Numbered from the stretch's first letter, positions 1 through 32,460 are shown. The stretch: DNA of 64,000 nucleotides from an uncultured Collinsella sp. (GCA_900549575.1 URPB01000001.1:2560-66559); one strand, 5' to 3'. Notes: generated by a model from the sequence alone, not told the origin. A program made the numbers and translations.

Positions 1-1
1 C

Positions 2-6583: not shown

Positions 6584-6618
6584 CCGCAGGCGACACCAGA
6601 CATAACCTCCTGGACATG

Positions 6619-6655: not shown

Positions 6656-6691
6656 ATGCCCGACGCTCACCGCTCACGAAAGGGGCAACAA

Positions 6692-13806: not shown

Positions 13807-13828
13807 ACCAAGCAAGAGAGGAAACGGA

Positions 13829-14149: not shown

Positions 14150-14152
14150 GGC

Positions 14153-15055: not shown

Positions 15056-15067
15056 AAAGGCAACGAA

Positions 15068-15976: not shown

Positions 15977-16015
15977 CCAGCCGAGTAGGCCCCAGGGCCG
16001 AAAGCAGAGCGCGGA

Positions 16016-16171
16016 GAGGAAGGAAGGCGCGACCGTCGGGCTCACGCCCGTAAATACGCACCCCGCGAGGGTGGCCGGACGCTGCTTGCATGGCGCGGCG
16101 CTCCGTGGCTTCGCCGCGTTTCATGGCCATACCTCAAGCGGCTGTCAGAGCCACATTGAAAGCCGTGCGGG
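16016..16171 (+). ncRNA. DGR spacer (Sp)-like conserved region upstream of RT
   Basis: About 75-80 percent identical by eye to 24003-24165 (reverse strand) of prophage 2, with stems conserved and loops changed (cgggc-tcac-gcccg vs cgggc-atgc-gcccg). Confidence 0.5.
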
Positions 16172-17362: not shown

Positions 17363-17380
17363 CAACGGAAGGAGCGACCC

Positions 17381-17626
17381 ATGACGGAACAGGAAATCGC
17401 CGGGGAGATCAACGGCTACAAACAGCAGCTTGAGCAGAGCGACTACAAGGTCATGAAGGCGGTGGAGCGCATCTTCTCCGCATCGTCCATCACCGACCTG
17501 CTCTCGGCCATCGCCGCAGCTGCCAAGGAGGTGGCCGAGATCATCTCGCAGCGCCAGACGTGGCGCGACCGCATCAACGAGCTGGAAGCCATGGAGCCCG
17601 ACCAGCCGGAAGCGCCGCAGGAGTAG
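17381..17626 (+). CDS. Hypothetical protein
   Basis: 81 aa; RBS ggaaggag upstream; followed by terminator. Confidence 0.5.
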   Translation: MTEQEIAGEINGYKQQLEQSDYKVMKAVERIFSASSITDLLSAIAAAAKEVAEIISQRQTWRDRINELEAMEPDQPEAPQE

Positions 17627-17628
17627 CG

Positions 17629-17656
17629 AGCGCCCCTTCGGGGGCGCTTTTCTTTT
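17629..17656 (+). terminator. Rho-independent terminator
   Basis: agcgcccc-ttcg-ggggcgct followed by ttttctttt. Confidence 0.7.
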
Positions 17657-17712
17657 GCCCGGCGACACCTCGCGGACAATCGCGGCAGCGATTCGAGGAG
17701 GTGAGAAAACGA

Positions 17713-18126
17713 ATGACCGACGTGCTGGAAATCTTCGCGCCGTACGGCCCCGGGTCGCTTTTCGGCGCGCTGCTCGTCCTAGTGGTCCTGTACTTCGGCA
17801 AGCAGTTCCTCGAAGAGTTCAAGGCCCAGAACGAGCGCAAGGCGAACATCGACCTCAAGCGCGAAGAGCGAAAGCAGGACGAGGTGAGCGAGCGGGCGCA
17901 GCGCGACCGCGAGCGCAGCCAGATGGAGGGCCGCATCGCCGCGCAGATGGAGCGCAGCAACGCGCTGATGGAGGCTATGAAGGCGCTCATGGAGTCCGTC
18001 GTGACCTCCAACGAGGTGCTGCACGCCGACCTGGCGAACAGCCAGGCGCGCAGCCAGGGCATGGCGGCGAAGGTCGACCACATCGCCGACCGCGTTGACC
18101 TGCTCTACAAGGAATCGACTCGATAG
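17713..18126 (+). CDS. Membrane-anchored coiled-coil protein of the lysis module
   Basis: 137 aa; N-terminal TM (LFGALLVLVVLYF) then coiled coil; paralog of 21920-22366 with near-identical core ERAQRDRERS.MEGRIAAQMERSN. Confidence 0.6.
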   Translation: MTDVLEIFAPYGPGSLFGALLVLVVLYFGKQFLEEFKAQNERKANIDLKREERKQDEVSERAQRDRERSQMEGRIAAQMERSNALMEAMKALMESVVTSNEVLHADLANSQARSQGMAAKVDHIADRVDLLYKESTR

Positions 18127-18139
18127 AAAGAAATCCGAA

Positions 18140-18445
18140 ATGACAGAAATGCAAGCAATCGCAGCCATCGTGCTGTCTTTCGCCGTGCCGTTCGCGGTGC
18201 AGCTGATCAAGACCGAGGCCATGACCGGCAAGGCCGCGCGCATCCTGGCGCTGGGCTGCTCGCTCCTGGCGGGCGTCGTGACCGGCTTCGTGGGCGGCGT
18301 GCCCGCAGACCCGGGCGCATGGGTCACGTGCGCCTTCGCCGTGGTAGGCGGCGTGCAGGCGGCCTACACGCTGTTCAAGTCGGTGGGCATCACATCCAAG
18401 TGGCTCGACGCCCTGTTGGGCGTGACCGTAGGCGGGAAGGAGTAG
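18140..18445 (+). CDS. Holin (putative)
   Basis: 101 aa, three hydrophobic segments, immediately upstream of endolysin. Confidence 0.55.
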   Translation: MTEMQAIAAIVLSFAVPFAVQLIKTEAMTGKAARILALGCSLLAGVVTGFVGGVPADPGAWVTCAFAVVGGVQAAYTLFKSVGITSKWLDALLGVTVGGKE

Positions 18446-18448
18446 GCA

Positions 18449-19261
18449 ATGGCTAAACTGTTCATCATCTGCGGCCACGGCGCTGGCGACCCCGGCTGCT
18501 GCGCAGGCGGCTGCACCGAGGCCGAGCGCGTTCGCGCCCTGGGCCAGCGAATCAAGGAACTGGGCGGTTCCGAGGTCGAGCTGGGCGATACGTCCCGCAA
18601 CTGGTACGCCGACGGCGGGCTTAACCGCCTGAGCACCGACGCGCCAGTGGTGGAGCTGCACATGGACGCCAGCGGCATCGCCACGGCCCACGGCGCGCAC
18701 GTCATCATCAAGGAGGGCTTTGAGCCTGACGAGTACGACAATGCGCTGGCCGACAAGCTGGCGGCGTTCATGCCCGGGCGCTCCGAGAAGCTGGTGCGCC
18801 GTTCCGACCTCGCGAACCCGAACCGAGCCGCCGCGCGCGGCATCAACTACCGCCTGTGCGAGAACGGCTTCATCGACAACGACGGCGACCGCGAGAAGTT
18901 CAACGGCAACCTGGACGAGCTGGCGCGCATCTACCTGGAATGCTTCGGCATCACTGCTGGAAGCGCCCCCGCAGCCGTCCCGCAGCCGCAGCCTGCGCAG
19001 CAGGAAACGACCGAGAACTTCGGCGGCACCTACCGCTGCACTGTGGACTACCTGCGCGTGCGCGACGCCCCCGGCCTGGGCGGCACCGAGGTGGCGCACT
19101 ATTCCAGCGGCGAGACCGTGACGCTGGATAACTGGTACAAGATCGCCGACGGCTACGTGTGGGGCCGATACACGGGCTACAGCGGCGCAACGCGCTACAT
19201 CGCCGTGGGCAAGGCCACGGGCAAGCCAGAGGCCGACGACTATCTGGTGAAGGTGGGATAG
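18449..19261 (+). CDS. Endolysin: N-acetylmuramoyl-L-alanine amidase with C-terminal SH3b-like domain
   Basis: IICGHGAGDPG...VELHMDAS...ENGFIDNDGDREKF fits Amidase_3-type; C-terminal YLRVRDAPGLGGTEVAHYSSGETVTLDNWYKIADGYVWGRY is SH3b-like. Confidence 0.75.
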   Translation: MAKLFIICGHGAGDPGCCAGGCTEAERVRALGQRIKELGGSEVELGDTSRNWYADGGLNRLSTDAPVVELHMDASGIATAHGAHVIIKEGFEPDEYDNALADKLAAFMPGRSEKLVRRSDLANPNRAAARGINYRLCENGFIDNDGDREKFNGNLDELARIYLECFGITAGSAPAAVPQPQPAQQETTENFGGTYRCTVDYLRVRDAPGLGGTEVAHYSSGETVTLDNWYKIADGYVWGRYTGYSGATRYIAVGKATGKPEADDYLVKVG

Positions 19262-19264
19262 GCC

Positions 19265-19576
19265 ATGCCGTACCCGAGCCCCGCAGACGAGGAGCGCAAC
19301 GGCGGGTGCGGCCCCATCCTCGCGGCGGTCGTCCTGCTGTTCATCGTCCTGGCCGCCGCCAGCTGCGCGTCGCAGGCCATGGGAGCGCAAGACGTGACCG
19401 TGAGGCAAGCCCGCACGGACGGCCCCATATACGACCTGCCCGAGGGCATCGGCCAGGAAATCGTGTGCGACGAGCACAACCGCGAGTACCTGCTGCTTAC
19501 CACCGAGCAGGGCGGCGTGTTCCTCATGCCGTACATGGACGAGGACGGCGAGCAGGAGATCATGCCGCAGGCCTAG
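19265..19576 (+). CDS. Small putative lipoprotein at prophage end
   Basis: 103 aa; hydrophobic signal-like segment ending in lipobox-like LAAASC. Confidence 0.45.
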   Translation: MPYPSPADEERNGGCGPILAAVVLLFIVLAAASCASQAMGAQDVTVRQARTDGPIYDLPEGIGQEIVCDEHNREYLLLTTEQGGVFLMPYMDEDGEQEIMPQA

Positions 19577-19582
19577 AACGCA

Positions 19583-19616
19583 AAGAAGCCGCCCCGTATG
19601 GAGCGGCTTCTTTCTA
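19583..19616 (+). terminator. Rho-independent terminator closing prophage 1 late operon
   Basis: aagaagccgc / gcggcttctt stem followed by tttctat. Confidence 0.7.
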
Positions 19617-19870
19617 TCTGACGAGCAATACGAACGCCCGCCTAACGACGAACACGCGTATGTGTTCGCCTACTGAACAATTGGTGGAGCTTATGAGAAA
19701 AACGGCGAACTCCACAAGCACCGCCAACCGCGCAGCTATCCAGCTTGATACTTGCATCGTTAGGGTATCGAAAAACTGGTTTGTTGTCGTTGGCACGTGT
19801 CAAAAATAGCAATTTCCGGTGTTTGCAAAACACCAGATGGGCGGCTTGCTGTAAGCCCGTCTAACGCCAG

Positions 19871-19902
19871 AAAGCGGGGCACCCCTTGTCAGGGTACCCC
19901 GC
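19871..19902 (-). terminator. Terminator downstream of prophage 2 endolysin
   Basis: gcggggcaccc / gggtaccccgc stem (10 of 11 pairs); short T-run on - strand. Confidence 0.5.
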
Positions 19903-19909
19903 TTGAACA

Positions 19910-20974
19910 CTAATAAGAAAGCTTCTGGCCGGGGTAGATCGTATAAGGTGCCCCAATGCCGTTCTTGCTTGCGATGGTGTGCCAGTCGATACCGAGCGAA
20001 GCGCCAATCTCGCTGAGCGTGTCGCCGCTCTTGACGGTGTAGACGCGCGCAGCGCCAACGCCCGCCCTCTGGTTGACGATTGCCTGAACCTCGCTGAAGC
20101 GTTCGCCCAGAACGTCGCTGCGCGTCGGCACAACGCCGAACATTCCGCGTTCAACATCATCTGCGAGCTGAGAAGCGGAAGCGCCGTCAATGTAGTTGAT
20201 GAGGTCTTGCACCTCTTGGTAACGGTCGCCGAGCTTTTCGCGGCGCTCATCGTCAACGCCATACTCGCCGCGCATGACCGCTGCTGCAAGGTCAAGCGTC
20301 GTGCCCTCCGGCGAAGGCTCGGCGACCTCTGCGGGCGGAACGTCGGGCGCTGCCGCGCCGGACGGGTTGGCAAACTTACCCCACACTTCGCGCGTCATAT
20401 AGGCGATATCGAGATCAAGCGGCGCGTTGAAGCCATCGAGACGGCCATTCGACGTGTACTGGTGGATTGCGCAGCTACCCCAAGCGCCAAAGCCGCCATC
20501 GGGAAGCCACGGCGAAGACTGGTAGCCGGTTCGGTTGTTGTTGGCGTACTGCGCAACCCAGAGCGCGTGATTCGGCGCGATCTGCGACCAATCCTCTTCG
20601 GTGCAAACGCTACGGCTCATGTAGACGATGCAGCGAACGCCGGTCTGATCGTAGACGTAATCGAGGAACTGCTTTGCCTTGTCGGTTCCGATGCGCCCGT
20701 ACATCTCATAATCGAGAACGGGAATGCCATTTCCGAAGTAGTTACGGCAGCTTGCGACGAAGTGCTTAGCCTGAGCGATGGGGTCTTCTCCGTTCATGAA
20801 GTGATAGAAGCCCCAGAGCTTGCCGAGCTTGATAGCCTGCTGAATCCACGGGTCGCAGGTGTTGTGAACGATGGTGGTTCCCTCGGTCGCCTTGCAGATA
20901 ACGAAATCGCAAGGCACCTGCGCGAGGTCAAGCCCTCGCTGGTAGTTGGAAATATCAATGCCGTTGAGTGCCAT
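19910..20974 (-). CDS. Endolysin: GH25 muramidase + two CW_7 repeats + LysM
   Basis: N-terminus NGIDISNYQ...DFVICKATEG...FYHF is GH25-like. GEYGVDDERREKLGDRYQEVQDLINY and GMFGVVPTRSDVLGERFSEVQAIVNQ resemble Cpl-7 repeats. C-terminal YTVKSGDTLSEIGASLGIDWHTIASKNG is LysM. Confidence 0.85.
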   Translation of the reverse strand: MALNGIDISNYQRGLDLAQVPCDFVICKATEGTTIVHNTCDPWIQQAIKLGKLWGFYHFMNGEDPIAQAKHFVASCRNYFGNGIPVLDYEMYGRIGTDKAKQFLDYVYDQTGVRCIVYMSRSVCTEEDWSQIAPNHALWVAQYANNNRTGYQSSPWLPDGGFGAWGSCAIHQYTSNGRLDGFNAPLDLDIAYMTREVWGKFANPSGAAAPDVPPAEVAEPSPEGTTLDLAAAVMRGEYGVDDERREKLGDRYQEVQDLINYIDGASASQLADDVERGMFGVVPTRSDVLGERFSEVQAIVNQRAGVGAARVYTVKSGDTLSEIGASLGIDWHTIASKNGIGAPYTIYPGQKLSY

Positions 20975-21665
20975 AGAAGCCCCCTCTGATGCAGTAGAAG
21001 TAATGAAAATCGACCTGCTCTAGCTCTTCGAGCGTGAAGGCGCGCGCGGAGTTCCCAGCGCTCGCCGGGTCGCGTATCCAGTAGCCGTCATCGTCGGCGC
21101 GCCAGATAAGCACGACGTGCCCGCCGTAGTCCCTATCGCCGAGCGTTCCGCTCATGCCAGCGAAGGCGAGCCACCCATCAGACACGTTCTGAAGGACGGG
21201 TGCGAGATCGTAAGAAATCGGCGTGCTCTCGATGCCGTATTCCGGGTAATGCTCGGCAATCCACGCGCAGAACTTGCCGGGGTCGTTAACGCCATCGGTA
21301 AGGCACGTGTCACCCACGAACGATGCGAGCGTGAGCGGCGTAATGTCCTGAAGCGTCATGTATTTGACAGACATAGCCGCGCATGTAAGGCCGCAGCCGT
21401 TGTCGCCGATTGTTCCGCCCGCATAGGGTATGTAGTCCCATTGCGGGTCGGTCTGAAGCCATAGCGGCATGCTGTTACCCTCGGCAATCGGCCTATCGAC
21501 CACGATTGCAAGGCGGTCTTCCTCAGCCGCCGCGTAGCCCTCTTCGCGCGCTTCAGCGAGCGCGCCCGCGTCGCTCTCGATATGGCCGACGATGAGCCAG
21601 CCGCAGAAGAGCATTGACGCGAGCGCGCCGGAAAGCACGAGGGCGACAGCCTTTAGCCTACTCAT
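20955..21665 (-). CDS. Membrane-anchored papain/C39-like cysteine peptidase (second lysin candidate)
   Basis: N-terminal TM (AVALVLSGALASMLFCGWLIV); QTDPQWDYIPYAGGTIGDNGCGLTCAAM Cys motif and later GHVVLIW His; start 21665 overlaps holin stop. Confidence 0.6.
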   Translation of the reverse strand: MSRLKAVALVLSGALASMLFCGWLIVGHIESDAGALAEAREEGYAAAEEDRLAIVVDRPIAEGNSMPLWLQTDPQWDYIPYAGGTIGDNGCGLTCAAMSVKYMTLQDITPLTLASFVGDTCLTDGVNDPGKFCAWIAEHYPEYGIESTPISYDLAPVLQNVSDGWLAFAGMSGTLGDRDYGGHVVLIWRADDDGYWIRDPASAGNSARAFTLEELEQVDFHYFYCIRGGFYGTQRH

Positions 21666-21918
21666 CGCGCTTCGGCTCGGTGTAGGTGAGCGCTTGCGCG
21701 GAATCGCCAACGCCCGCCGTGGTCGGGTCGGTCACGATGCCAAGAATCGCGAGCACGGCGAAAAACGCGTTGATGATCGCGGCCAACTGCTCGTTCAGAA
21801 CGCCGAAGTCCCACTGGTAGCCGAACGGCGCGGCGACCACCTGCACGAGCAGCAGGACGGCGGGAATGAGAGTCAGCCAGAACGTCTTGTTCTTGATTCG
21901 TGCGGTGAAGTTAATCAT
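21658..21918 (-). CDS. Holin
   Basis: MINFTARIKNKTFWLTLIPAVLLLVQVV... resembles LL-H/phi LC3-type holins; AAGGAG RBS 7 nt upstream of ATG 21918. Confidence 0.7.
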   Translation of the reverse strand: MINFTARIKNKTFWLTLIPAVLLLVQVVAAPFGYQWDFGVLNEQLAAIINAFFAVLAILGIVTDPTTAGVGDSAQALTYTEPKRDE

Positions 21919-21919
21919 T

Positions 21920-22366
21920 TCAGTTCTCCTTTTCATAGATGAGGTCTACGCGGTCGTAGATGTGATCGACCTTGTTTGCCATATCGTGCGAGTGCTCGCG
22001 CGATTCCCTGATTTCGTCGTGCAGCGCCGCCGTGGAAGCCCTGAGAGATTCCATAGCGGCTTGCAGCCCTTCCGAAATGTTGTTGCTTCGCTCCATCTGC
22101 GCAGCGATGCGGCCTTCCATTTCCGAGCGCTCGCGGTCGCGCTGCGCGCGCTCGTTGAGTTCGTCGCGCTTACGCTCTTCGCGCTTCAGCTCTAGCTCTG
22201 CCTGTCGCGCTGCGTTTCTCTCTTCAAGCTCCGCCTTGCGCTCGTTGTTGCGCTGGTACTCGTTAAGCAACTGCTTTGCGAGGATCCCGAAGCCGATAGC
22301 AACGAGGAACGCGAAGAACCATTCGGCACCGAAGGCCGCTGCATGGTCTAAAACGCTCTCCGCCAC
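21920..22366 (-). CDS. Membrane-anchored coiled-coil protein of the lysis module
   Basis: 148 aa; TM then coiled coil; paralog of 17713-18126. Confidence 0.6.
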   Translation of the reverse strand: MAESVLDHAAAFGAEWFFAFLVAIGFGILAKQLLNEYQRNNERKAELEERNAARQAELELKREERKRDELNERAQRDRERSEMEGRIAAQMERSNNISEGLQAAMESLRASTAALHDEIRESREHSHDMANKVDHIYDRVDLIYEKEN

Positions 22367-22367: not shown

Positions 22368-22814
22368 TCAGCCCTCCGTCACCTCTCGCCAGACGGTTTC
22401 GGTTCCGACAGCACCCGGCTCCCAGACGTTGCTAGCAACGAGGGATTCCCAGACCTTGCCGTTGTGCTTCACGCGGGCACCGAGCGGGTAGGGATTCGTA
22501 GAATCGGGCTGCACCCATTCGGGCACTTCCTCTGTCGGCGTGTCGGGCGTGCCCGCTTCAAGCACCTTCGCCCAAAGGCTCGGCGCTGCCGTGGGTTCCC
22601 AATCGGTCTGCGACGTGTGCGCCTGAAGGCAAACGTAAAGCTCGCCCTCATAGCTCGCGCGCTCGCCCTCGGCGTAGGCATGGCCGTTGCCGTCCCACGC
22701 GGCGAAGAGCGCGGCGGCTCGGCTCGCCACGTCGGTTGAGAGAGACGGCGCTTGTGTCTTGTAAATCGCGATGATCGCGCGCACCATGCTCTCTTCGTCT
22801 TCGGTGAGTGCCAT
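22368..22814 (-). CDS. Protein with two CBM5/12-like carbohydrate-binding repeats
   Basis: YAEGERASYEGELYVCLQAHTSQTDWEPTAAPSLW and YPLGARVKHNGKVWESLVASNVWEPG match the Y-x-G-x-V-x-Y-x-G-x-x-Y-x-x-x-x-H-T-S-x-x-x-W-x-P pattern. Confidence 0.6.
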   Translation of the reverse strand: MALTEDEESMVRAIIAIYKTQAPSLSTDVASRAAALFAAWDGNGHAYAEGERASYEGELYVCLQAHTSQTDWEPTAAPSLWAKVLEAGTPDTPTEEVPEWVQPDSTNPYPLGARVKHNGKVWESLVASNVWEPGAVGTETVWREVTEG

Positions 22815-22841
22815 TTGTTGCCCCTTTCTCTCAGTAACGAA

Positions 22842-22870
22842 AAAGCCCCCGCGTCTGCGAGGGCTTTGGT
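22842..22870 (-). terminator. Terminator downstream of RT
   Basis: On - strand aaagccctcgc-aga-cgcgggggcttttt; T-run follows. Confidence 0.55.
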
Positions 22871-22892: not shown

Positions 22893-24002
22893 TTAGCTGA
22901 AGAGCTGCTTATAGAGCGCGTCCATGCGCCTTACCGTCTCGTGAGCGTCAAGTCGCTTCATGCCTCCGCGCCACGATTGGTAAGACTGGTTAACTTGCTC
23001 GACGGTCATAACGCCGCGAGCGACCAGCGCCGCTTGCTTCTTAAGCTTGCGCCGCTGCCGTGTCACGGAAGAGCGGCAAGGGCGAACAACCACCTTTTCA
23101 CCCTCGCCATATGAAAACCTCTTCTTCAGGAACACGAAGCCGCGCGACAGCTTCACTACGCGCGTCTTCTTGCGGTTGATGATGATTCCCAGATCGTCGC
23201 AGAGCGCTTCGATGCGCGAAAGCGCGTCCCAAAGCGTCTGCTTGTCAAGCGCGATGCAATAGCTATCGTCCATGTAGCGACCGCTCGCGAGGATGCCCGG
23301 AAGCGAAAGCATCAGATGGTCTATCGGCGACGGTAAGGCCACCGCTAAAATCTGGTTCGGCTCGCTGCCAAGACCAAGCCCGCGCGCGCCGTGAGCGTCT
23401 ATCTGGTCGCACATGACGCGCTTAACGCGCTCATCGTCAATGGCTCTGTCGATGATGCGCTTGCAAGCGTCGTGGTCGATGTTCGCGAAATAGTCCGAGA
23501 AATCGACCTGCAAGATGTAGCCTTCCGTCCCGTGCTTTCGCCGGTGGGCTACAAGCTGACGCTTCATGCGATTGATTGCGTACTCGGTGCCGCGCCCCTT
23601 CACGTTTGCGGCGCATCCCTCTGTCAGGGTAGGCCAGATCGCGGGTGCGAGCGCGTGACGGCTTAAAGACTTCTGTATGACACGCTCCGAGAAGTGGACA
23701 GAGCAGATATGACGAAGCTTTCCGCGCTCGAAAAGGTCAAACTCGATGAAGCCGCGCCGGAAGTCAGCGCCCGTGAGCAGGTCGCGGCGCGCCCGCATGA
23801 TGTTTGGCATGACGCGCCCCATGTAGCGCTGAACGCTTGCCTTCCAGCGAACGCCCGCAGCAGCGCCGTTCGCCGCGCTGTATAGGTTATCGAGGTCTGC
23901 GACGGCTTCTAGCGTGCATCCTTCGATGCGCCTAGCCCTATTCTCCGCGCGTTTGGCATCTCGCCTTGCGCGGCGTGCTGCGCGTCGCTCTTCAGAGTTC
24001 AC
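22893..24002 (-). CDS. DGR reverse transcriptase
   Basis: GTG 24002 (VNSEERRAARR..., colinear with prophage 1 RT start); GRYMDDSYCI and LGLGSEPNQILA motifs; adjacent to TR. ORF-track extension to 24173 overlaps the conserved spacer and is judged non-coding. Confidence 0.9.
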   Translation of the reverse strand: MNSEERRAARRARRDAKRAENRARRIEGCTLEAVADLDNLYSAANGAAAGVRWKASVQRYMGRVMPNIMRARRDLLTGADFRRGFIEFDLFERGKLRHICSVHFSERVIQKSLSRHALAPAIWPTLTEGCAANVKGRGTEYAINRMKRQLVAHRRKHGTEGYILQVDFSDYFANIDHDACKRIIDRAIDDERVKRVMCDQIDAHGARGLGLGSEPNQILAVALPSPIDHLMLSLPGILASGRYMDDSYCIALDKQTLWDALSRIEALCDDLGIIINRKKTRVVKLSRGFVFLKKRFSYGEGEKVVVRPCRSSVTRQRRKLKKQAALVARGVMTVEQVNQSYQSWRGGMKRLDAHETVRRMDALYKQLFS

Positions 24003-24165
24003 GAGGGCACCCCGCGCGGCTTGCAGTCGGCATCCAGCAGCCGCTTGACGGTTGACCATGAAACGCGGTCGGAAGCCGAGAACCGCGCCATGCAAGCAGC
24101 GAACGGCAACCGTCGCGGGGTGCATATTTACGGGCGCATGCCCGATGGTCGCCCCTTCCTTCCTC
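24003..24165 (-). ncRNA. DGR spacer (Sp) region between TR and RT
   Basis: Conserved with 16016-16171 of prophage 1, including compensatory-looking changes; lies where DGR RNAs carry the cDNA-priming spacer. Confidence 0.55.
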
Positions 24166-24218
24166 AAATGCACGGCGCGCGGCGCTTACGGCCGCGCGGT
24201 CTGGCAAAGCTTGGGAAT

Positions 24219-24342
24219 CACGGCAGCGGGCGTATCCAGTCGTTCGTCGGCGCGTTGTTGTTGGCATTGCCGTTGTTGTTGACATTGCACGCGTTGGACG
24301 CAGAACCACCCATGACAGACCGCAGCCACCAATTGACGCGAC
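24219..24342 (-). repeat. DGR template repeat (TR)
   Basis: 124 bp identical to VR 24874-24997 except 8 positions, all T on + strand (A on the coding strand); encodes 11 AAY codons in the target frame. Confidence 0.95.
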
Positions 24343-24370
24343 GATTTCCAAGGGACAACTCGCGAACATT

Positions 24371-24781
24371 TTACCCCTTTCCTATGAGTTTCACGCCAGC
24401 GCGAGCGCCCTTTATCAGCTTAATGTCGCTGTCGATTCGGTCTAGGATTCCTTCGAGCCGCGCGGCCTTGATGGGAAGCCCCATAGTCAGAAGGCTTTGC
24501 ATGTCTTGGTAGAGCTGGTTTAGGTCTGCCAGCGCAAGCGTCATGTAGCGCTTCCGCTCATCGACGTTGCGCGCCGTGTTCGGATAGAATGCGTCGGCCT
24601 TAACCAGATTGAAGACAACGCTTCTCGCCGTCTCTGCCATAGGTACCGCGAAGATGAAGCGGTAGGATTTCGGAACGTCGCGCGACGTTACAAGGCGCGT
24701 CACGTCGTTTCTGATCGCAACCGCCGTGTTGAAATACTCGAAAGCGCTTAGGTTGCGGTTGCGCATGTATACGCCGCTCAC
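24371..24781 (-). CDS. avd: Accessory variability determinant (Avd), four-helix-bundle type
   Basis: 136 aa between VR and TR; GTG 24781 with AGGAGG 7 nt upstream; sequence style of the 23S-rRNA-IVS/Avd family (…SYRFIFAVPMAETARSVVFNLVKADAFYP…). Confidence 0.75.
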   Translation of the reverse strand: MSGVYMRNRNLSAFEYFNTAVAIRNDVTRLVTSRDVPKSYRFIFAVPMAETARSVVFNLVKADAFYPNTARNVDERKRYMTLALADLNQLYQDMQSLLTMGLPIKAARLEGILDRIDSDIKLIKGARAGVKLIGKG

Positions 24782-24811
24782 TTCGCGGCACCTCCTAATC
24801 TGCGACGGTTA

Positions 24812-24834
24812 GGCGCATGCGCAAGGCATGCGCC
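24812..24834 (-). promoter_or_regulatory. GC-rich hairpin just 3' of the target gene (DGR target-recognition-type stem-loop)
   Basis: Perfect 9-bp stem ggcgcatgc / gcatgcgcc with 5-nt loop, 24 nt beyond the stop codon. Confidence 0.5.
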
Positions 24835-24857
24835 AGCGCGGTACTGTGTACGGCTTA

Positions 24858-25760
24858 TCAGCCTATGAGGAAGCACGGCAGCGGGCGTATCCAGTCGTGC
24901 GTCGGCGCGTTGTAGTTGGCATAGCCGTTGGAGCTGACAGTGCACGCGTTGGACGCAGAACCACCCATGACAGACCGCAGCCACCAAGTGACGCGACCGC
25001 CCGCGATGCGGCTTGCCGTATCGCTGGAGATGGGGAACTGGCTATCGAAGCCGACAGAGTAGCCCTTGGTGCCCCATACCGGACAGCCGTAAACCTCCAT
25101 CTCTGAGGGCGACCAGACCTTGCCCAAGTCCGCCCAGCTCCAACCGCTCGATTCGGTGAGCTTTTCGCTCGAAGAATAGCGCTCTTCGAGAAGCACGCGC
25201 TGCGCCATGATCGCGTTCTGAAGCGCGGTCGGCAGCGCTGGCAGGAAGTCGTTGATTTCCCAGTCGTGCAGCTTCGAAACCAAGTATGGGTGCTTTTCCT
25301 CGGCGGTACCGTTGTTGTCGTTCGTATCGCGCCACTGAAGGTAGCTGGTGTTTGATGCCTTGTCTCCGGTGACGCTCACGGGCGCGAGCGGCACCATGAC
25401 GATATGGTGCCCCTTCGCTGTGTCGCCGCACTGGTAATAGTGGTCGATAGCGCCGATGCGGTAGCGCACCGTCTGCGACGGCACGTTAGCGCCCGCTGTG
25501 ATGGGAACGTCGATGTAATCGCCGATGCGAATACCGGCGAAGTTGGCGCTTCGAGCGCGGTTCCGAAGCCATGTGTAAACGTCGGTGCTCCCGATCTCGT
25601 TTGCGAAGACCGAAGCGAGCGAGCGCCCAGCGTAAGAGTTTGTGTTGTGCTGTCGGTCGTATTCCTCGGCAGTCGTTACGGCGTTCGCCGTGTTGCGCGC
25701 AGAAGAATCCTTCAGATTGTAGGCGGTTCCGCCGATAGAGAACTTCGACAAGTCGGCCAT
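24858..25760 (-). CDS. DGR target: receptor-binding (tail fibre tip) protein
   Basis: 300 aa; contains VR at C-terminus; follows BppU-like fibre gene. Confidence 0.9.
   Translation of the reverse strand: MADLSKFSIGGTAYNLKDSSARNTANAVTTAEEYDRQHNTNSYAGRSLASVFANEIGSTDVYTWLRNRARSANFAGIRIGDYIDVPITAGANVPSQTVRYRIGAIDHYYQCGDTAKGHHIVMVPLAPVSVTGDKASNTSYLQWRDTNDNNGTAEEKHPYLVSKLHDWEINDFLPALPTALQNAIMAQRVLLEERYSSSEKLTESSGWSWADLGKVWSPSEMEVYGCPVWGTKGYSVGFDSQFPISSDTASRIAGGRVTWWLRSVMGGSASNACTVSSNGYANYNAPTHDWIRPLPCFLIG
24874..24997 (-). repeat. DGR variable repeat (VR) at 3' end of target gene
   Basis: See TR. Substitutions give N to T, T, S, S, Y, Y, H in the protein ...VTWWLRSVMGGSASNACTVSSNGYANYNAPTHDWIRPLP. 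Confidence 0.95.
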
Positions 25761-25775: not shown

Positions 25776-26774
25776 TTAGTTGAGCGTCGCCGTCTCGCCG
25801 CTCACGTTCGCCTGAGCGACGGTTACGGTCTCGCTAGAAAGTGCAGTGCGTCTGTTGGTGGGCATGTACGCCGTTTCGCCAAGGACTATGTAGCCGTCCT
25901 GTAGCTCCACAAGCGCCGTCGCAAGCGTCGCGTTCTCTTCGCGCAGCTCTTGCACCTCGTCATCTGAGGGCGGCTCGATAGAAGCGATAGAGTTTGCGAT
26001 GTTAAGCGCGTTCTGCGCAGCGGCGGTGGCATCCTCCGCCGCGCCGTTTGCCGCAGCAGCGGCGGCGTTGGCGCTTGAAGCGGAACTGTTCGCCGCGCTC
26101 GCGGCGGCGTTGGCGTTGGATGTTGCCGCGTCGGCGTTCTGCTTGGCGGTGTTGGCGGCTGATGCCGCGTTGTTCGCAGCCGTGGTTGCAGCGTCGGCGT
26201 TCTGCTTGGCGGTGTTCGCCGCCGAAGCTGCGCTTGTCGCCGAAGCTGCGGCATCGTTTGCAGCCTTCGCGGCGTTGGTCGCGCTCGTAGCAGCCGAGTT
26301 CGCCTTGCTCGCGGCGCTGTTCGCCGCGCTGGCCGCACTGTTGGCTGAGCTTACGGCCTGATTGCCACGGTCGATGAGGTCTTGCACGGCATCGTCCCAG
26401 TTCTGCGAGGGCTGCTGCCCGTCAAGAGCGCTGCGCAGGATTTCGATTGCGAAGCGCTCCGTCGAATAGGTCTTGTCGCTCTTCGTGATCGTGAAATAGG
26501 CTTCGTCGGTGTAGCCGGGGACGCTGCAAAGCTTGGATTCGTCAACCGTGATCGTGGCGGCGTTGCCGCTCACCGAGCACTGGCCGCGATAGTAGTTGCG
26601 CTTGTTCGGCAGAAGCACGACAAGCCATGCGGTAGCGCCTGAAAGCGAGAACTCAGCGCCGTTGTCGTAGATAAGCGCCTTGATTGTGGTTCCGCCATTG
26701 TCGCCCTGACCAACCTTGACGCAGGTTCCCGCACCTTCTTTCGAAATATCGAGTTCAAGCGTTCTGGTGTTCAT
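25776..26774 (-). CDS. BppU-N-like baseplate/fibre protein with Ala/Asn/Ser-rich repeats
   Basis: N-terminus LELDISKEGAGTCVKVGQGDNGGTTIKALIYDNG...LSGATAWLVV; long AAN(S/T)A repeat region; counterpart of 14153-15055. Confidence 0.55.
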   Translation of the reverse strand: MNTRTLELDISKEGAGTCVKVGQGDNGGTTIKALIYDNGAEFSLSGATAWLVVLLPNKRNYYRGQCSVSGNAATITVDESKLCSVPGYTDEAYFTITKSDKTYSTERFAIEILRSALDGQQPSQNWDDAVQDLIDRGNQAVSSANSAASAANSAASKANSAATSATNAAKAANDAAASATSAASAANTAKQNADAATTAANNAASAANTAKQNADAATSNANAAASAANSSASSANAAAAAANGAAEDATAAAQNALNIANSIASIEPPSDDEVQELREENATLATALVELQDGYIVLGETAYMPTNRRTALSSETVTVAQANVSGETATLN

Positions 26775-26971
26775 AAGGAATCACCGCCTGAATCTCTGGC
26801 CGATATGACCGATTCCTGCATGGTAGAAACAAGCACGCTGATAGCGTCAACAAGATTGTTCGTATTCTGCACAAGCGCAGATACCATCTCCTTTAGCCCT
26901 TCCTCGTGCTCAACCGCAGCCGGCGGCGCGGCGCTTTGGGCTGTGTCTTCCATGATTCCCCCTAACTCCAA
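26771..26971 (-). CDS. Small hypothetical tail-module protein
   Basis: 66 aa, coupled to flanking genes. Confidence 0.4.
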   Translation of the reverse strand: MELGGIMEDTAQSAAPPAAVEHEEGLKEMVSALVQNTNNLVDAISVLVSTMQESVISARDSGGDSL

Positions 26972-29088
26972 GTCAAACTTTCGTGGAACTCGCCGTTAAG
27001 CCACCCGAACCCCTTCGACCCGCAGCGGCATTGAACGCCGCTTGAATCAACCCTTATGTAATGGGTCGAATCGAACGCAAGCGTTGCATGTCTCCCGGAG
27101 GTCATAGTCAGACGCGGGTATCCCTGATTCGTTGAATCTGTCGATTGCGGAGGGCTGAGGATGATGTAAGGGTTGCCGGTAGTTGCCCCCGAGTAATACT
27201 GCACGGCTTCGAGGAAGTACCGGCCTGTGTTTCTCATCCCAACGCCGTTGTCTACGAATCTCACAAGGTCGAACAGCTGGTTTCCTGAGCATTCGAAGCT
27301 GAACCCCGATTTTCCGTCGCTCGTCGCTCCGACGGTTACGTTCGTATCAGAGTTGCGGTAGCTCTCAATCTTGTTGGTCGATACGGTGCCGGATCGGATG
27401 TACTCACCGTTGATGTATATGCGACCGCCACTGAGATAGATTCCCTGTGTCTGGCCGTTGTTAGTCAGCTTGTTGAATATGTCACGCTGCGTCTGCGCAC
27501 TGACGGCTGAACTTGCCGCATTGGCGGCGATATCCTGAACTGTCTTGCCGCCAACCTCCGCACTTGCTGAAAGCGAGAACTCGCCGGTGGTCAAGTCCCA
27601 GAAGTTCTCGCCTTCCTCGTCCGTGAGAAGCCCGGCGCGCACTCGGTCTGCGCGCATCGTCCCAGCATTGATGCAGTCAGCCGCGACCATTCCGCCCGTT
27701 AGGAAAGTCCGCCAGTCCCACGAGCCGTCGGATGCAAGACCGGAGGCAAGGCGCAAGCCCATTCCGTTTATGTTGATTGCCCACATGCCGGACGTGCTAT
27801 TTAGCGGAAGGCCGGTATGCGCGTCGATGGGGACGTTAGACCATATGGTTCCAATCTCGAAAGTCTCAACCTTGTAGGTGCCCACTGCGTTGAACTGAGC
27901 GTTGAGCGCGGATTGAAGCTGCTGAAGCCATGAAACCGACGTTCCAGCCGCCGTGTCGTAGAGCGCGTTTTGCTGGCTGTTGCTCTTCAGGGCGCTGCTG
28001 ACGCTCTGCCACATGTCGGCCATCGTGTCAGTAAGCGTGCCGAACGTCACGGTCGCGTCGCCGGTGAGCAAGTCGCGCTCAATCTGAGACACGCGGCCAT
28101 GAAGACGCACGCCCTCGGCAGAAAAGCCCTTGTCGATGATCGCCACGTCATCGCCAACGCCCACGCCCTCCCACGAGCGCCCGAAGGCGTATAGGTCGAT
28201 AACCGAAGCGGTGTAGGTTACTTTCGGCTCCTTCACTTGCTCCAAGTAATCTTGCGTTTCCTGCAAGAGCTGCGCCGCGTCCTCGCACTGCTCGTTGACG
28301 TATGACGCGACGGCGGGAAGAATGCCGCCCTCGCCGTCAGGGTGCCCCCAAACGGCGGTTGCTTCTGCATCCTCCACGTAGTCTTTGCCGCCGTTTATAT
28401 CGCCGAAGGTGAGACGGCGACCGTAGCCGCCGCCCTCAGTCTCAACGCCCTTGCCGTAACCGTAGACGCGCGTTTTCGGGTTGTCGCTCGCAACCGAGCG
28501 CTTGACGGAAACGAGGTCTTTAGTCCACGTGAACCGCTTTGCGCTGCTCTGGTTGCCGCGCTTGGCGCGCACTCCCACGCGGCGGCTAACGATTCCCGCG
28601 CCGTCGTGGACGATGAGCGTTTCAAGCTCGCCGCCCCATGTCTCGATGATTCCGGCCAAACCCTCGCGCACGCTCTCATGGTAGAAGGTGCGCGAAGCGC
28701 TGCCGCCCTGATCGCACGTGCCGACCTCCCAGCGCGTGTCTGCGAGAATGGATGTGAGGGCTACCGACACGCTGCCAGAAGGCCGCTTATCGTCCAACCA
28801 GTCATCCCACGTCTCGTTTACCGAGTTGATGCAGACGGCTTGCGTCTCTGGCGCGCCGTCATCGTCGTGTACGCGGTCGATAGTGTCAACGATGTGTTCG
28901 TGGCAAACTCCCTGAAGGTCAATCCAGACTACGCGGTCGCCCTTCACGAGGTCTTCGGCGCACGTGATGTTCAGTTCGTCGGTTCCGTCCAGCGCGTCGG
29001 TGTGCGTCGCTGCGCTCACCGTGAGCCGCCCCAGATTGTCGCCCCAGCGGTTGAAGCGGGTGAAGCCGATACGTCTAACTAAAGCCAT
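26962..29088 (-). CDS. Tail-associated (Tal-like) minor structural protein
   Basis: 708 aa from ATG 29088; N-terminal third homologous to 11254-13806. Confidence 0.75.
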   Translation of the reverse strand: MALVRRIGFTRFNRWGDNLGRLTVSAATHTDALDGTDELNITCAEDLVKGDRVVWIDLQGVCHEHIVDTIDRVHDDDGAPETQAVCINSVNETWDDWLDDKRPSGSVSVALTSILADTRWEVGTCDQGGSASRTFYHESVREGLAGIIETWGGELETLIVHDGAGIVSRRVGVRAKRGNQSSAKRFTWTKDLVSVKRSVASDNPKTRVYGYGKGVETEGGGYGRRLTFGDINGGKDYVEDAEATAVWGHPDGEGGILPAVASYVNEQCEDAAQLLQETQDYLEQVKEPKVTYTASVIDLYAFGRSWEGVGVGDDVAIIDKGFSAEGVRLHGRVSQIERDLLTGDATVTFGTLTDTMADMWQSVSSALKSNSQQNALYDTAAGTSVSWLQQLQSALNAQFNAVGTYKVETFEIGTIWSNVPIDAHTGLPLNSTSGMWAININGMGLRLASGLASDGSWDWRTFLTGGMVAADCINAGTMRADRVRAGLLTDEEGENFWDLTTGEFSLSASAEVGGKTVQDIAANAASSAVSAQTQRDIFNKLTNNGQTQGIYLSGGRIYINGEYIRSGTVSTNKIESYRNSDTNVTVGATSDGKSGFSFECSGNQLFDLVRFVDNGVGMRNTGRYFLEAVQYYSGATTGNPYIILSPPQSTDSTNQGYPRLTMTSGRHATLAFDSTHYIRVDSSGVQCRCGSKGFGWLNGEFHESLTWS

Positions 29089-29816
29089 CGTTCCACCCAC
29101 TCAAGAATCGCGGTGCCGTTAGTGATGTTCAGGTGGCATCGTCCGTTGATCTCGAAGTAATCCGAATCAATCGTTACCGGCGCGGTCTGGTTGTTTACCG
29201 TCGCGTGCTCGGTCGCCATGTCAAGCCGTATGGTGCTCGAAGACGTGAGCGCGGTATTGATAGCCACGAACTCGCCGGTATCGACGTTCGTAATCCGCCA
29301 CGTGCTGCCAGCGGAGGGCTTCGCCGTGACCTTCAGGTAAGCGGGTCGGTTGCCGCCAGCGTTTACGTAGATGTTGCCAGCCGAAACCTCCATGCGGCGC
29401 TTCTGTCCGTAATAGTCGGGGTCGCCGATATGGAAAGTCACGGTTGTAGTCGGGCAATCGTCGGTGATCTCGTCAAGGTCGGTGCTGCCGCTCACGATTG
29501 CGAGCAGGTAGCGCGTCGGGTCATCAGGAAGGTAGAGCGGAGCTGGTTCGTCCGTCCAGAGAGCCGCCGCGAGCTTATGCCGCATCTCCGCGACCTCGCG
29601 GCGGTCTTCCGTCCTAAGCCAAATCTCAACGGGAAGGTCGTAGCCGCCACGGTAGGCGCTCTTGAAGACCTCGCCATGCCGCCCCGGCACGCTCTCGAAC
29701 GTCGCGTTGACGGTCGCCATGATGGGGCGGCGCACCTTGCAGTAAACCAGCTTCGATAGGTCGGTGCCGTTGAAGATGATTCGGTCGTGCTGGTTCCTAG
29801 TCCGTCTAAGTTGCAA
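29079..29816 (-). CDS. Distal tail protein (Dit)
   Basis: 245 aa between TMP and Tal; overlaps both. Confidence 0.65.
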   Translation of the reverse strand: MQLRRTRNQHDRIIFNGTDLSKLVYCKVRRPIMATVNATFESVPGRHGEVFKSAYRGGYDLPVEIWLRTEDRREVAEMRHKLAAALWTDEPAPLYLPDDPTRYLLAIVSGSTDLDEITDDCPTTTVTFHIGDPDYYGQKRRMEVSAGNIYVNAGGNRPAYLKVTAKPSAGSTWRITNVDTGEFVAINTALTSSSTIRLDMATEHATVNNQTAPVTIDSDYFEINGRCHLNITNGTAILEWVERWL

Positions 29817-32460
29817 CTGGCACCCCCCTTTGCTTCAGCTTGCTTGCGATGCCAGCGCCGATCTGCTGGCCTGTCTCGTATGCGTCCACGCCGTCAGCGA
29901 CCGTGGCGTAAACCGTCACGGCGACGTTAACGGGCTGGCTCGGCGTGTCGGCGAACCGCGAGAAGGCGCGGTTTACCGAAGTCTCGATGAAGCCTTGCAA
30001 CTGCTTCTCAGGCGCGATGAACTCGCCGCCCGCTTCGCCAACGCCGACGATTGAAGGCTCATCGAAGTAGCCGCCGCGCGCGTACCAACTGATGCTCACG
30101 CTCGGTAGTGAAATCGGGCCGAACTCGTTCCAGCTCACGTTGAAGTGCGGAAGCTTTGGCTTCGGAATGCTTATCTTGATTCCGCCGAAGGCGTTCATGA
30201 TCTTCTGCGGAATGCTCGAAATCGCGTTCCATGCGCTTTCGATAGGGTTCTCTATGAAGCCCCGAATGCTGTTGAACACGCCCTGCACCTTCGAGCCAAG
30301 GCCGGGGAATCCCAGCTTGTCGCCGATTCGGTCTGCGATGCTAACCGCCGTGCTCTCGGCAGCGTCAAGCTTCGAGCCGATGTTGTCTTTAATCGCGTTG
30401 AAGGCGTTTGCCGCTTGGCTCTTCGCCGTCTCCCAGTCGCCGTTCATCGCGGCTTGCAGAGCGCCAGCCGCAGAGCTGCCAACCGTCTTCGCGGTGTTCA
30501 TGTCGTTCTGCACCGTGGAAGCGATTTGCCCGAAGGCCGAATCGGTGTTGCCGGTTAGGTTGTTCCACCAGTTAGACACGGTATCGACCGCGCCTTGTGC
30601 GAGGTTCCCGACGTTGGTTTTAAGATCGTTCCAAGCGTTCGAAGCGCCGGTTTTGATGTTCTCCCAAGTGTCGGAAGCACCTTGCTTCAACTGCTCCCAC
30701 TTCTCGCCAACGCCGGTGCAGAAATCAGAAACGCCAGTGCTGACCTGCTCCCAGATTCCGCCCCAGAACTCAGGCACGCCAGCAAAGAAATCCTGCACGG
30801 CTTGCCACTTCTCCGAAATCCAGCCGGTGAAGTCAGACCACATCTGCTTACCCGTCTCGGTCTGCGTGAAGAACCACGTAAGACCAGCGACGGCGGCGGA
30901 CACGGCGGCAACGCCAAGGGCGATAGGATGCGCGGCGATAAGCCCGGTAAAGCCCGTCCATCCGCTAGAGAGCGTGCCGGTGAGCATGCTTCCAAGACCG
31001 CCCGCCTTGGTAACGATGTTAGAGAAGCCGGTTCCGATTTTGCTTAGAAAGCCCGTATCGCCCATGAGCTTCTTAGCGCCGCCCCAAAGCTCGCCAGCGG
31101 TCTTGAAGGCGCTTCCCACGCCCTCTGCGGCTTCCATCGTCTTACCAACGGCTGTTGTCACGCCGCCGAAGGCGACGGCTCCTAGAGCGAGGTTGTTAAC
31201 AAGCGTCTGCTGCTCTGGCGAAAGGTTCTTGTACCAGCCCGTGACGGTTTCGAGCGCGGGCGCGAGCGTGTTAAGAAGGCTCGTGCCAATCTCGGTAACG
31301 GCAGTCTTGACGGGCAAGGCCGCTTCGCCGAGTTCCTGCATGCTCTGGTTCATCTCGTTCTGCGCGTCGCGCGAAGCGAGAAGGTCTTTGTTCGTCTCTT
31401 GGTACTGCTGTCCAGCTTCGCCGAGAAGCCCGTTGAGCGTTTCGGTGATGAGCGTAGACCGCTCTTGCTGGTCGCTGCACGACGCGAGGGCGGCGTTGAA
31501 CGCGTCTTCTTTCGTCTGACCCTCTGCTATCGCTTGGTTGAACGCTGCTTGCGCGTCAGAGTTGCCGGAAAGCGCCGCGCTCCACTGATCGGCGGAAATC
31601 TTCGACCAATTGAGGGCATCGGATAGGCCAGAAACGGCCTGTCCGGTGGAAGCGGCCTCTTGGGCACCCTCGGCAAGGTTGGTGATAGGTAGAGCGTCAC
31701 CGAACACCGCAAAAGCGCCAGCGGCAATGTCTGTCCACTGTTGAAGCTCTTGCTCGTTCGTGGTCAGGCGCGCCAAGTTCTGCGCCGCTTCTGTCGCGGT
31801 GTCTTCCTCGCCAAGGATGCGGTAGAAACTCGAATAGACGCTTTGCGCCGTCTCGGCGGTGCTACCCGCCTGAGTGAACGCAACTTCGAGCTGACCGCTG
31901 CGCTGTATCGCTTCCTCTTGGCTCGATGCAAGGCCGGTGAGCGCGCCAGCCGCACCGATGATGCCGCCAGACAAAGCGGTTCCTGCGCTCGAAACCTTAG
32001 ACCCGGCGTTTGAAATAGCGTCGGCGTTGTCCTCGATGGTCTGGCCGAGCTTGCCAAGCGCGGTCTTAGACCCTTCGGCCTGTCGCGCCGTGTCCGCAAG
32101 CTCGCTGCCGTAGCTGTCAAGCTGGCGCTCGCACTGCATGATCGCGCGCTTCAGGCTGTCGTACTGCCGTTCTTCCTGAGCCGTGAGCTGCGCGCCGCTC
32201 TGTTTCTTGCTCTCCAACTGCGCGAGCGCCTGCTTGTAAGCGTCAAGCTTCTGCTTCGTCTCGCCGTAGGCAGAGTTGAGCGCCTTTACCTTCTGCTCTA
32301 GCAGCTCGGTGTTTCCGGGGTCGAACTTCAGCGCCTTGTTGATATCGCGCAAGTCGCTTTGGGTGTCGCGCGATGCTTGCTGAACCTTCTTCAGGGCGCT
32401 TTGCAGCTCGGTAGTGTCGCCGCCGAACTTGATAACAAGCCCCTTGTAAGTGACCGCCAC
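29806..32460 (-). CDS. Tape measure protein
   Basis: 884 aa; coiled-coil N-terminus, hydrophobic Gly/Ala-rich centre, W-repeat C-terminal region. Confidence 0.85.
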   Translation of the reverse strand: MAVTYKGLVIKFGGDTTELQSALKKVQQASRDTQSDLRDINKALKFDPGNTELLEQKVKALNSAYGETKQKLDAYKQALAQLESKKQSGAQLTAQEERQYDSLKRAIMQCERQLDSYGSELADTARQAEGSKTALGKLGQTIEDNADAISNAGSKVSSAGTALSGGIIGAAGALTGLASSQEEAIQRSGQLEVAFTQAGSTAETAQSVYSSFYRILGEEDTATEAAQNLARLTTNEQELQQWTDIAAGAFAVFGDALPITNLAEGAQEAASTGQAVSGLSDALNWSKISADQWSAALSGNSDAQAAFNQAIAEGQTKEDAFNAALASCSDQQERSTLITETLNGLLGEAGQQYQETNKDLLASRDAQNEMNQSMQELGEAALPVKTAVTEIGTSLLNTLAPALETVTGWYKNLSPEQQTLVNNLALGAVAFGGVTTAVGKTMEAAEGVGSAFKTAGELWGGAKKLMGDTGFLSKIGTGFSNIVTKAGGLGSMLTGTLSSGWTGFTGLIAAHPIALGVAAVSAAVAGLTWFFTQTETGKQMWSDFTGWISEKWQAVQDFFAGVPEFWGGIWEQVSTGVSDFCTGVGEKWEQLKQGASDTWENIKTGASNAWNDLKTNVGNLAQGAVDTVSNWWNNLTGNTDSAFGQIASTVQNDMNTAKTVGSSAAGALQAAMNGDWETAKSQAANAFNAIKDNIGSKLDAAESTAVSIADRIGDKLGFPGLGSKVQGVFNSIRGFIENPIESAWNAISSIPQKIMNAFGGIKISIPKPKLPHFNVSWNEFGPISLPSVSISWYARGGYFDEPSIVGVGEAGGEFIAPEKQLQGFIETSVNRAFSRFADTPSQPVNVAVTVYATVADGVDAYETGQQIGAGIASKLKQRGVPVAT

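Follow-up and report, generated by a model that had tools for sequence, protein, structure and literature searches.

Positions 22893-25760 of the 64,000-nucleotide (nt) stretch of DNA analyzed here (the window), which comes from an uncultured Collinsella sp. (GCA_900549575.1 URPB01000001.1:2560-66559), hold a minus-strand cassette in which we found every component of a diversity-generating retroelement (DGR): a target gene encoding a DUF6273 protein, with a variable repeat (VR) at its 3' end, a hairpin, a gene for an accessory variability determinant (Avd)-like protein, a template repeat (TR), a spacer RNA of the RT-2 family, a reverse transcriptase (RT), and a terminator (Table 1). The element showed every defining DGR feature that could be tested, and it is almost certainly an intact, canonical DGR carried by a ~32-kb siphovirus-type Collinsella prophage. 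An earlier note on this DNA had described a complete DGR with the minus-strand order target, hairpin, avd, TR, spacer, RT. That order is correct, and the completeness of the element is borne out by an RVT_1 RT with YMDD and [LIV]GxxxNQ motifs whose best solved-structure match is 8ub7_A, by an accessory protein with an Avd-type four-helix bundle, and by conservation of the hairpin.

A direct repeat search aligned the TR with the VR over 129 nt, at 93% identity and with a spacing of 655. The earlier note had located this repeat properly but had given its length as 124 nt, and the homology runs 5 nt further. The spacer RNA ahead of the RT is separated from the TR by 4 nt, and the VR ends 9 nt ahead of the target stop codon (24858-24860), with the diversified span at ~24888-24989. 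Base-by-base comparison showed that all nine TR/VR mismatches fall on TR adenines, the coding strand being the minus strand. Eight of them, at plus-strand coordinates 24244, 24259, 24268, 24276, 24277, 24279, 24285, and 24333, are those listed previously, and on the plus strand each is a T in the TR that becomes G, A, A, G, A, C, G, and G, respectively, in the VR; the ninth, at 24218 (T to G on the plus strand), lies within the 5-nt extension. With adenines at 28 of the 129 nt, a set of just eight mismatches would be confined to A with a probability of 2e-6. We recovered the same 27 adenines in the 124-nt version and the same 11 AAY codons, in the frame RVNWWLRSVMGGSASNACNVNNNGNANNNAPTNDWIRPLP, and seven Asn codons are indeed changed, to T, T, S, S, Y, Y, and H. 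The capacity of the TR amounts to 4^27 = 1.8e16 DNA variants, or ~2e15 protein variants.

The same pattern was seen on a population scale when TR and VR were compared within each of 44 loci, namely, 43 related loci and the window. These loci contain 12 distinct TRs versus 43 distinct VRs and so provide a population-resolved example of recurrent rewriting of a presumed phage tail-fiber tip in Collinsella, which bears on phage-host dynamics in an abundant gut genus. TR adenines account for 512 of the 541 TR/VR mismatches across the 44 loci. In 43 loci, with the divergent locus L124 and two edge positions left out, the VR differs at 40.0% of the TR-adenine sites (with G in 186 cases, T in 131, and C in 110) versus 0.36% of the non-adenine sites. 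Non-adenine polymorphisms, for example, those at TR positions 23, 26, 35, 38, 42, 89, 92, and 116, are common to the TR and the VR of one locus, which points to repeated TR-to-VR copying (concerted evolution). The nearest relative, L080, has an RT that is 100% identical to that of the window, and its cassette differs at 20 of 2868 nt, 15 of the 20 being inside the 129-nt VR. Among the closest relatives, 142 of 152 VR-to-VR differences are at TR-adenine positions. Adenine-specific TR/VR pairs were also present in all 13 diverse loci examined from the same RT clade. This population-level evidence from relatives indicates that the lineage is active and has rewritten its VR repeatedly.

The ninth difference is a fixed mark of donor and recipient and not a product of mutagenesis, since none of the 44 loci departs from it: every one of the 44 TRs has A at position 125, and every one of the 44 VRs has C at the matching position. 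In the window, this discriminator is a coding-strand C at 24873 (VR) versus an A at 24218 (TR), and the same G[A/C]TTCC difference was seen in a second DGR family. If the Bordetella phage BPP-1 system is a guide, the GC-rich VR end that contains this discriminator would act as the initiation of mutagenic homing (IMH) site. The 9-bp hairpin downstream lies 34 nt past the VR (fold z -2.5) and is kept in relatives through compensatory changes or wholesale replacement of the stem; the stem is GGCGCACGC/GCGTGCGCC in L017, the hairpin is AGCGCCCGCC-GCAA-GGTGGGCGCT in L014, and L124 has a different GC-rich stem. Together, the GC-rich VR end and the hairpin may, by analogy, serve as target-recognition elements.

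TABLE 1 Features of the DGR cassette and of the neighboring prophage regions in the window
Feature	Coordinates	Strand	Details
Target (variable-protein) gene	24858-25760	-	300 aa; Pfam DUF6273 at residues 142-294, E 4.4e-10
VR	24869-24997	-	Final 129 nt of target reading frame
GC-rich 3' end of VR, putative IMH position	24869-24888	-	Fixed TR/VR discriminator inside
Small hairpin	24852-24863	-	GGCT-GATA-AGCC; from folding
GC-rich hairpin downstream of VR	24812-24834	-	9-bp stem; GGCGCATGC-CTTGC-GCATGCGCC
Avd-like accessory gene	24371-24781	-	136 aa from GTG; alternative ATG at 24766 gives 131 aa
Duplex, upstream strand	24350-24359	-	GUUGUCCCUU; pairs with 24148-24157 (RNAduplex)
TR	24214-24342	-	Noncoding; 28 adenines; 11 AAY codons in VR frame; TGA at 3' end
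Spacer, Rfam RF03077 (RT-2 RNA)	23987-24209	-	Full-length cmscan match (model positions 1-222 of 222); 98.3 bits; E 9e-23
Duplex, downstream strand	24148-24157	-	AAGGGGCGAC; inside RT-2 RNA
DGR RT	22893-24002	-	369 aa from GTG 24002; RVT_1, E 8.6e-9; PHROG 1423, E 3.5e-63
Rho-independent terminator	22838-22867	-	End of cassette; AAAGCCCUCGC-AGAC-GCGGGGGCUUUUU
CBM_5_12 protein	22368-22814	-	148 aa, two modules; directly downstream of RT, ahead of holin
Holin	21658-21936	-	Downstream of cassette
C39-like peptidase		-	Downstream of cassette
GH25-CW_7-LysM endolysin	19910-20974	-	Downstream of cassette
BppU_N protein	25776-26774	-	Immediately ahead of target
Tal (Prophage_tail)	26962-29100	-	Upstream of cassette
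Dit	29079-29816	-	Upstream of cassette
Tape-measure protein	29806-32460	-	Upstream of cassette
Large serine recombinase	50055-51752	+	Open reading frame overlaps tmRNA 3' end by ~46 nt
tmRNA gene	51706-52069	-	148 bits
Collapsed DGR, other prophage	14153-17362	+	BppU_N, 14153-15055; DUF6273 target with VR-like end, 15068-15976
Collapsed DGR, RT-2 RNA	15972-16195	+	121.5 bits; directly after target
Collapsed DGR, RT	16181-17362	+	Intact; YMDD, LGSEPNQ; 59.5% identical to first RT
Other prophage, tape measure	7848-10544	+	
Other prophage, Tal	11230-13806	+	
Other prophage, amidase endolysin	18449-19261	+	

The RT-2 family, for which the gathering score is 40 bits, accounts for the spacer of the cassette, and the RNA ends 15 nt inside the RT start. 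In the RT clade, all 11 diverse loci examined have an RT-2 RNA immediately ahead of the RT; the record titles of these loci name Actinomycetota, Bacillota, Bacteroidota, Gastranaerophilales, a spirochaete, Synergistales, Mailhella, and others. An RT-2 RNA is also found in Roseburia phage Shimadzu (144.9 bits), between Avd/TR and RT. Weinberg et al. could assign only the RT-10 motif to a DGR, in the spacer of BPP-1, and raised as a speculation that the remaining RT motifs act in other DGRs (PMC5737381). Our data place RT-2 in the DGR spacer role.

Furthermore, a 10-bp duplex brackets the TR, formed by a segment 3 to 18 nt upstream of the TR and the RT-2 sequence that comes after a conserved AAGG; next come a stem-loop, CGGGC-AUGC-GCCCG, and UAAAUA. 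Pairing is seen in 95.5% of cells across 44 distinct helices, a percentage that is inflated by our having picked the upstream register by best pairing, and 10 of 12 pairs are changed on both sides, a diversity of compensatory pairs that this choice does not inflate. None of 500 shuffles attained the observed values. A fold of the whole region (23990-24400) was no better than shuffles (z +0.4), and the RNA structure is apparent only through the covariance model and covariation. Because the partner strand upstream of the TR lies outside the model, the Rfam RT-2 family appears to cover only part of the functional RNA. In several phyla (diverse loci L033-L079 and L115-L157, ~40 nt upstream and 45 to 100 nt downstream of each TR), the downstream strand of the duplex always comes after AAGG, in a stretch that is unpaired in the Rfam model.

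The duplex, stem-loop, and adenosines match the cPRT Stop element of BPP-1. In the ribonucleoprotein of Bordetella phage, cPRT Stop consists of the avd:Sp duplex, a stem-loop, and A-minor adenosines, and it has been predicted in 207 of 278 DGRs (10.1101/2023.10.23.563531). The link between RT-2 RNA and DGR function, and the covarying duplex that comes with it, fit the mechanism of reverse transcription worked out for Bordetella phage. We offer only tentatively the wider proposal that RT-2, so far an orphan RT-associated motif, is the spacer or priming RNA for an extensive DGR clade that spans phyla and is specialized for DUF6273 tail-fiber targets, with the unit extended by the covarying duplex.

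The best PDB match of the RT was 8ub7_A, a 328-aa RT chain (1.7e-12 over chain residues 12-321), whose length and motifs (IGSLTSQ and YMDD) lead us to regard it as the Bordetella phage RT (bRT). The window RT has YMDD, LGSEPNQ as motif 4, and an Arg aligned to R74 of bRT. GTG 24002 is most likely its start, as suggested by where the RT-2 RNA ends and by a conserved beginning, GTGAACTC, that it has in common with the second RT of the window, described below. Two other candidates, GTG 24173, at the head of a 426-aa open reading frame (ORF), and ATG 24060, were rejected; both are inside the RT-2 RNA. The terminator at the end of the cassette folds with -24 kcal/mol (z -5.3), and none of 200 shuffles folds equally well; it was missed by a promoter/terminator scan and recovered by folding.

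For the accessory protein, the AlphaFold model is a four-helix bundle (pLDDT [predicted local distance difference test] 82). Its top PDB fold matches are the small four-helix-bundle proteins 2gsc and 2rld (TM [template modeling score] 0.75/0.86), which we presume to be members of the Avd-related 23S rRNA intervening sequence (IVS) family, and it also matches Bordetella phage Avd (4dwl_C; TM 0.61/0.73). It is 29% identical to the annotated Avd of Shimadzu (E 5e-15), which is equal in length at 136 aa, and a 99%-identical protein in nr bears the name Avd-like. The modeled fold and this homology identify it as Avd-like. A phmmer search of the protein against PDB sequences returned nothing, and a subthreshold match to DUF1877 was disregarded.

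The earlier note had called the target the last gene of the tail-fiber module, which agrees with the order tape-measure protein, Dit, Tal, BppU-like protein, target. DUF6273, a published DGR-target domain (PMC11792537, PMC10743442), is present in 27 of 27 aligned target homologues. The target is 37% identical to the annotated tail fiber protein of Shimadzu, and the BFVD fold matches of its model are DUF6273 proteins, plus proteins named receptor binding protein or tail-collar fiber. We presume that it is a receptor-binding or tail-fiber protein, and its gene position and precedent suggest a role in host range. Among PDB structures, the best fold match of the model is 9qa6, an IgA peptidase of Thomasclavelia ramosa, the N-terminal domain of which is DUF6273 (PMC12402451). 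The presence of this domain in both a phage target and a gut bacterial IgA peptidase hints at a general binding module.

Sequence searches with the target were less informative. A phmmer search against PDB sequences returned nothing, no sequence similarity to the solved DGR variable proteins was detected, and the 27 homologues, searched against Pfam at E values up to 10, gave no weak DUF1566 or FGE-sulfatase signal. Because the targets of distant loci share the VR motif type, there was no relative annotated as a C-type lectin (CLec) for profile comparison. A target profile run against the PDB matched only cytochrome c oxidase subunit 1, and we judged these weak matches (E ~0.1) to be spurious. 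At 90% identity, the target cluster holds 790 distinct members versus 267 for the RT cluster, which fits hypervariability of the target.

On the model of BPP-1, diversification would proceed from a transcript that takes in the TR together with the RT-2 spacer RNA and the sequence immediately preceding the TR, with the 10-bp duplex, the presence of which is supported by covariation, folding around the TR. The RT and the Avd-like protein would bind this transcript, and cis-primed TR cDNA would be made with misincorporation opposite template adenines. The cDNA would replace the VR at the 3' end of the tail-fiber gene; the GC-rich VR end and the hairpin would mark the recipient, and the fixed A/C difference would tell donor from recipient. 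In this way, the last 40 residues of a DUF6273 protein in a receptor-binding position would take up to ~2e15 forms, and these variants would presumably alter host or receptor specificity.

Several observations weigh against the reading of the cassette as a canonical DGR that is active on a receptor-binding protein. Motif 4 of the RT ends in NQ, and the canonical ending is SQ; the NQ variant is listed among accepted DGR RTs (PMC3521204) and is the majority state in the RT clade (86 of 155 motif matches in related loci). The accessory protein had no match in Pfam, NCBIfam, or PHROGs. No CLec structure was among the PDB fold matches of the target, the AlphaFold2 model of which (overall pLDDT 67.8) is weak toward the C terminus, with values of 28-57 over most of the C-terminal third, which bears the VR. 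The evidence on DGR activity is at the population level, this genome being represented by one sequence, and current activity in this particular lysogen is presumed. Finally, the exact target protein, with the same VR, occurs on at least five public contigs, so that, on short timescales at least, the VR is stable.

These shared contigs could mean that the cassette, although structurally intact, is at present silent or inactive in the lysogen, a recent relic with a frozen VR, for example, through lytic-only expression or an unseen regulatory defect. The collapsed DGR of the neighboring prophage shows that such cassettes do decay, and our promoter scan, which covered sigma-70-type promoters only, found no sigma-70-like promoter on the minus strand of the cassette. 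However, the three ORFs are intact, with the catalytic YMDD and motif 4 present, as are the RNA elements, the hairpin, and the terminator; promoters of other than the sigma-70 type fall outside the scan; and L080 combines an identical RT with a VR that has changed at 15 positions. We consider a silent cassette unlikely. The DGR might instead be active on a target that does not bind a receptor and that serves in binding mucus, host glycans, or immunoglobulin or in evading a defense that senses the tail tip. The function of DUF6273 is only predicted, and its place at the N terminus of a bacterial IgA peptidase would suit such a role, as would the separate CBM_5_12 protein encoded just downstream of the RT; for DGR-diversified DUF6273 "tentaclins," the proposed binding partners are receptors on bacteria or cells of the intestine or immune system. 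Yet the target gene directly follows those for Dit, Tal, and the BppU_N baseplate protein, which is the slot of a receptor-binding protein, and some of its BFVD fold matches and its Shimadzu homologue carry receptor-binding or tail-fiber names, so that we find this alternative quite improbable.

A more radical alternative is that the repeats arose by ordinary duplication or gene conversion and that the RT belongs to a group II intron, a retron, or an Abi/DRT defense system, unrelated to the variation. The RT does have weak NCBIfam matches to group II intron RT/maturase (53 bits), retron, and DRT models, but all score far below their cutoffs (TIGR04416, 53 versus 300 bits; retron St85, 21 versus 235; Drt2, 21.5 versus 390; Drt3a, 20 versus 200). 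RT-2 is the sole Rfam match in the cassette, and no intron or retron RNA family was matched there. The best structural relative of the RT is the chain taken as the Bordetella DGR RT, and the adenine-only pattern, with its chance probability of ~2e-6, recurs in the 43 relatives and in 13 distant loci of the RT clade. This alternative is effectively refuted, and we give it almost no weight beside the DGR.

Of the known systems, the prototype BPP-1 DGR (mtd-avd-TR-brt) shares with the Collinsella cassette the gene order of target with 3' VR, hairpin, avd, TR, structured spacer, and RT, as well as the adenine specificity of the TR-to-VR differences. The likeness extends to the RT, which best matches the presumed bRT chain and has YMDD and the R74 equivalent, to the Avd four-helix-bundle fold of the accessory protein (4dwl), and to the duplex between the spacer and the region upstream of the TR, followed by a stem-loop and adenosines as in cPRT Stop. 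In contrast, the spacer RNA is RT-2 in the Collinsella cassette and RT-10 in BPP-1, RT motif 4 has NQ in place of SQ, the target is a 300-aa DUF6273 protein and not Mtd, the accessory protein lacks Pfam-level similarity to Avd, and the host is a Gram-positive member of the Coriobacteriia.

The closest named phage is Roseburia phage Shimadzu (LR596903), with an RT 48% identical to that of the window in addition to the tail fiber (37%) and Avd (29%) noted above. Its cassette has the same order and is likewise followed by lysis genes; it differs in host (Bacillota versus Actinomycetota) and in its longer target (431 aa), and there is no nucleotide-level similarity. DGRs of Faecalibacterium prophages and of "tentaclin" phages also have DUF6273 targets (PMC11792537, PMC10743442) but differ in their Bacillota hosts, phage backbones, and target architectures, some targets having Ig-like domains or an N-terminal VR. 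Prophage DGRs of Eggerthella lenta resemble the window's in host class, Coriobacteriia, and in architecture, with an mtd-like gene, a putative avd, a TR of ~130 bp, and an RT, while belonging to another genus (PMC8778435). One member of the 90% cluster of the window target is annotated as coming from an Eggerthella lenta metagenome-assembled genome.

The earlier note had attributed the cassette to an HK97-like phage of a high-GC Gram-positive-type host. An HK97-type capsid protein, portal, and TerL are indeed encoded further upstream, and the host is Collinsella (Coriobacteriia); the window RT is 93-99% identical to genes of many Collinsella genomes, C. aerofaciens ATCC 25986 among them. The novelty that the note implied does not hold, as the Eggerthella lenta DGRs, from the same class, were already published with VR-site variation observed experimentally in a chemostat (PMC8778435). 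The element is a further example of an already documented DGR type, that of gut-prophage tail-fiber DGRs, Coriobacteriia included. Near-identical cassettes are present in the NCBI, ENA, and IMG/VR public collections, and with such copies in genome and virome collections and this DGR type well documented, the element has little discovery value in itself. A literature search for DGRs in Collinsella found no paper, the sole co-mention of both concerning CspRecT. A blastn search of the cassette against GenBank phages gave zero matches, and it therefore has no close isolated relative.

A second, collapsed DGR lies in the other prophage of the window, where the RT is intact and an RT-2 RNA is kept. 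It has no avd, and no TR for it was found anywhere in the window. About 40 IMG/VR relatives with long enough upstream sequence, L161 among them, are complete and have adenine-specific TR/VR differences. In these complete relatives, the sequence reads GGCTAGCCAGCCGAGT/GCTC after the VR and TGCCAGACCGAGT/AGGCC after the TR, while the window reads GGCTAGCCAGCCGAGT/AGGCC. Because the window joins the VR flank to post-TR sequence in this way, we conclude that ~735 bp were deleted by recombination within a short homology, GCCAG(A)CCGAGT, common to the VR flank and the RT-2 start. Locus L184 shows the same deletion junction.

L092 (~5059-7106) and L116 (~1600-3317), two loci of the first family (that of the intact cassette), lack avd, and their one repeat copy continues collinearly from the target to RT-2 and the RT. 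Since these loci are also single copy, loss of the TR and avd by recombination between repeats seems to be recurrent in these prophages. The RT and RT-2 RNA of the collapsed DGR might be kept for work in trans with the intact cassette or for another role, and an intact and a collapsed DGR in one genome form a possible natural control pair.

The DGR-bearing prophage spans ~19.9-51.75 kb, which fits the 32- to 33-kb IMG/VR contigs with the same RT. Its integration site is probably the tmRNA locus, at the large serine recombinase gene; a duplicated tmRNA 3' end that could be an att core was not found elsewhere in the window. The gene for the CBM_5_12 protein, a candidate for a virion- or lysis-associated function, is found after the RT in locus L220 as well. 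The window holds two related siphovirus-type prophages that adjoin each other, at ~1-19850 (plus strand) and ~19900-51750 (minus strand), with their lysis modules converging; a GC-rich hairpin near 19875-19905 sits between the amidase_3 gene of the one (18449-19261, plus strand) and the GH25 endolysin gene of the other. The same adjacency of prophages was found in locus L009 (C. aerofaciens 1001099B). Also, the minor capsid protein 2 (Phage_min_cap2) of the other prophage (397-2475, plus strand) carries a C-terminal Ntox50 toxin domain (E 2e-18), an unusual virion-protein fusion.

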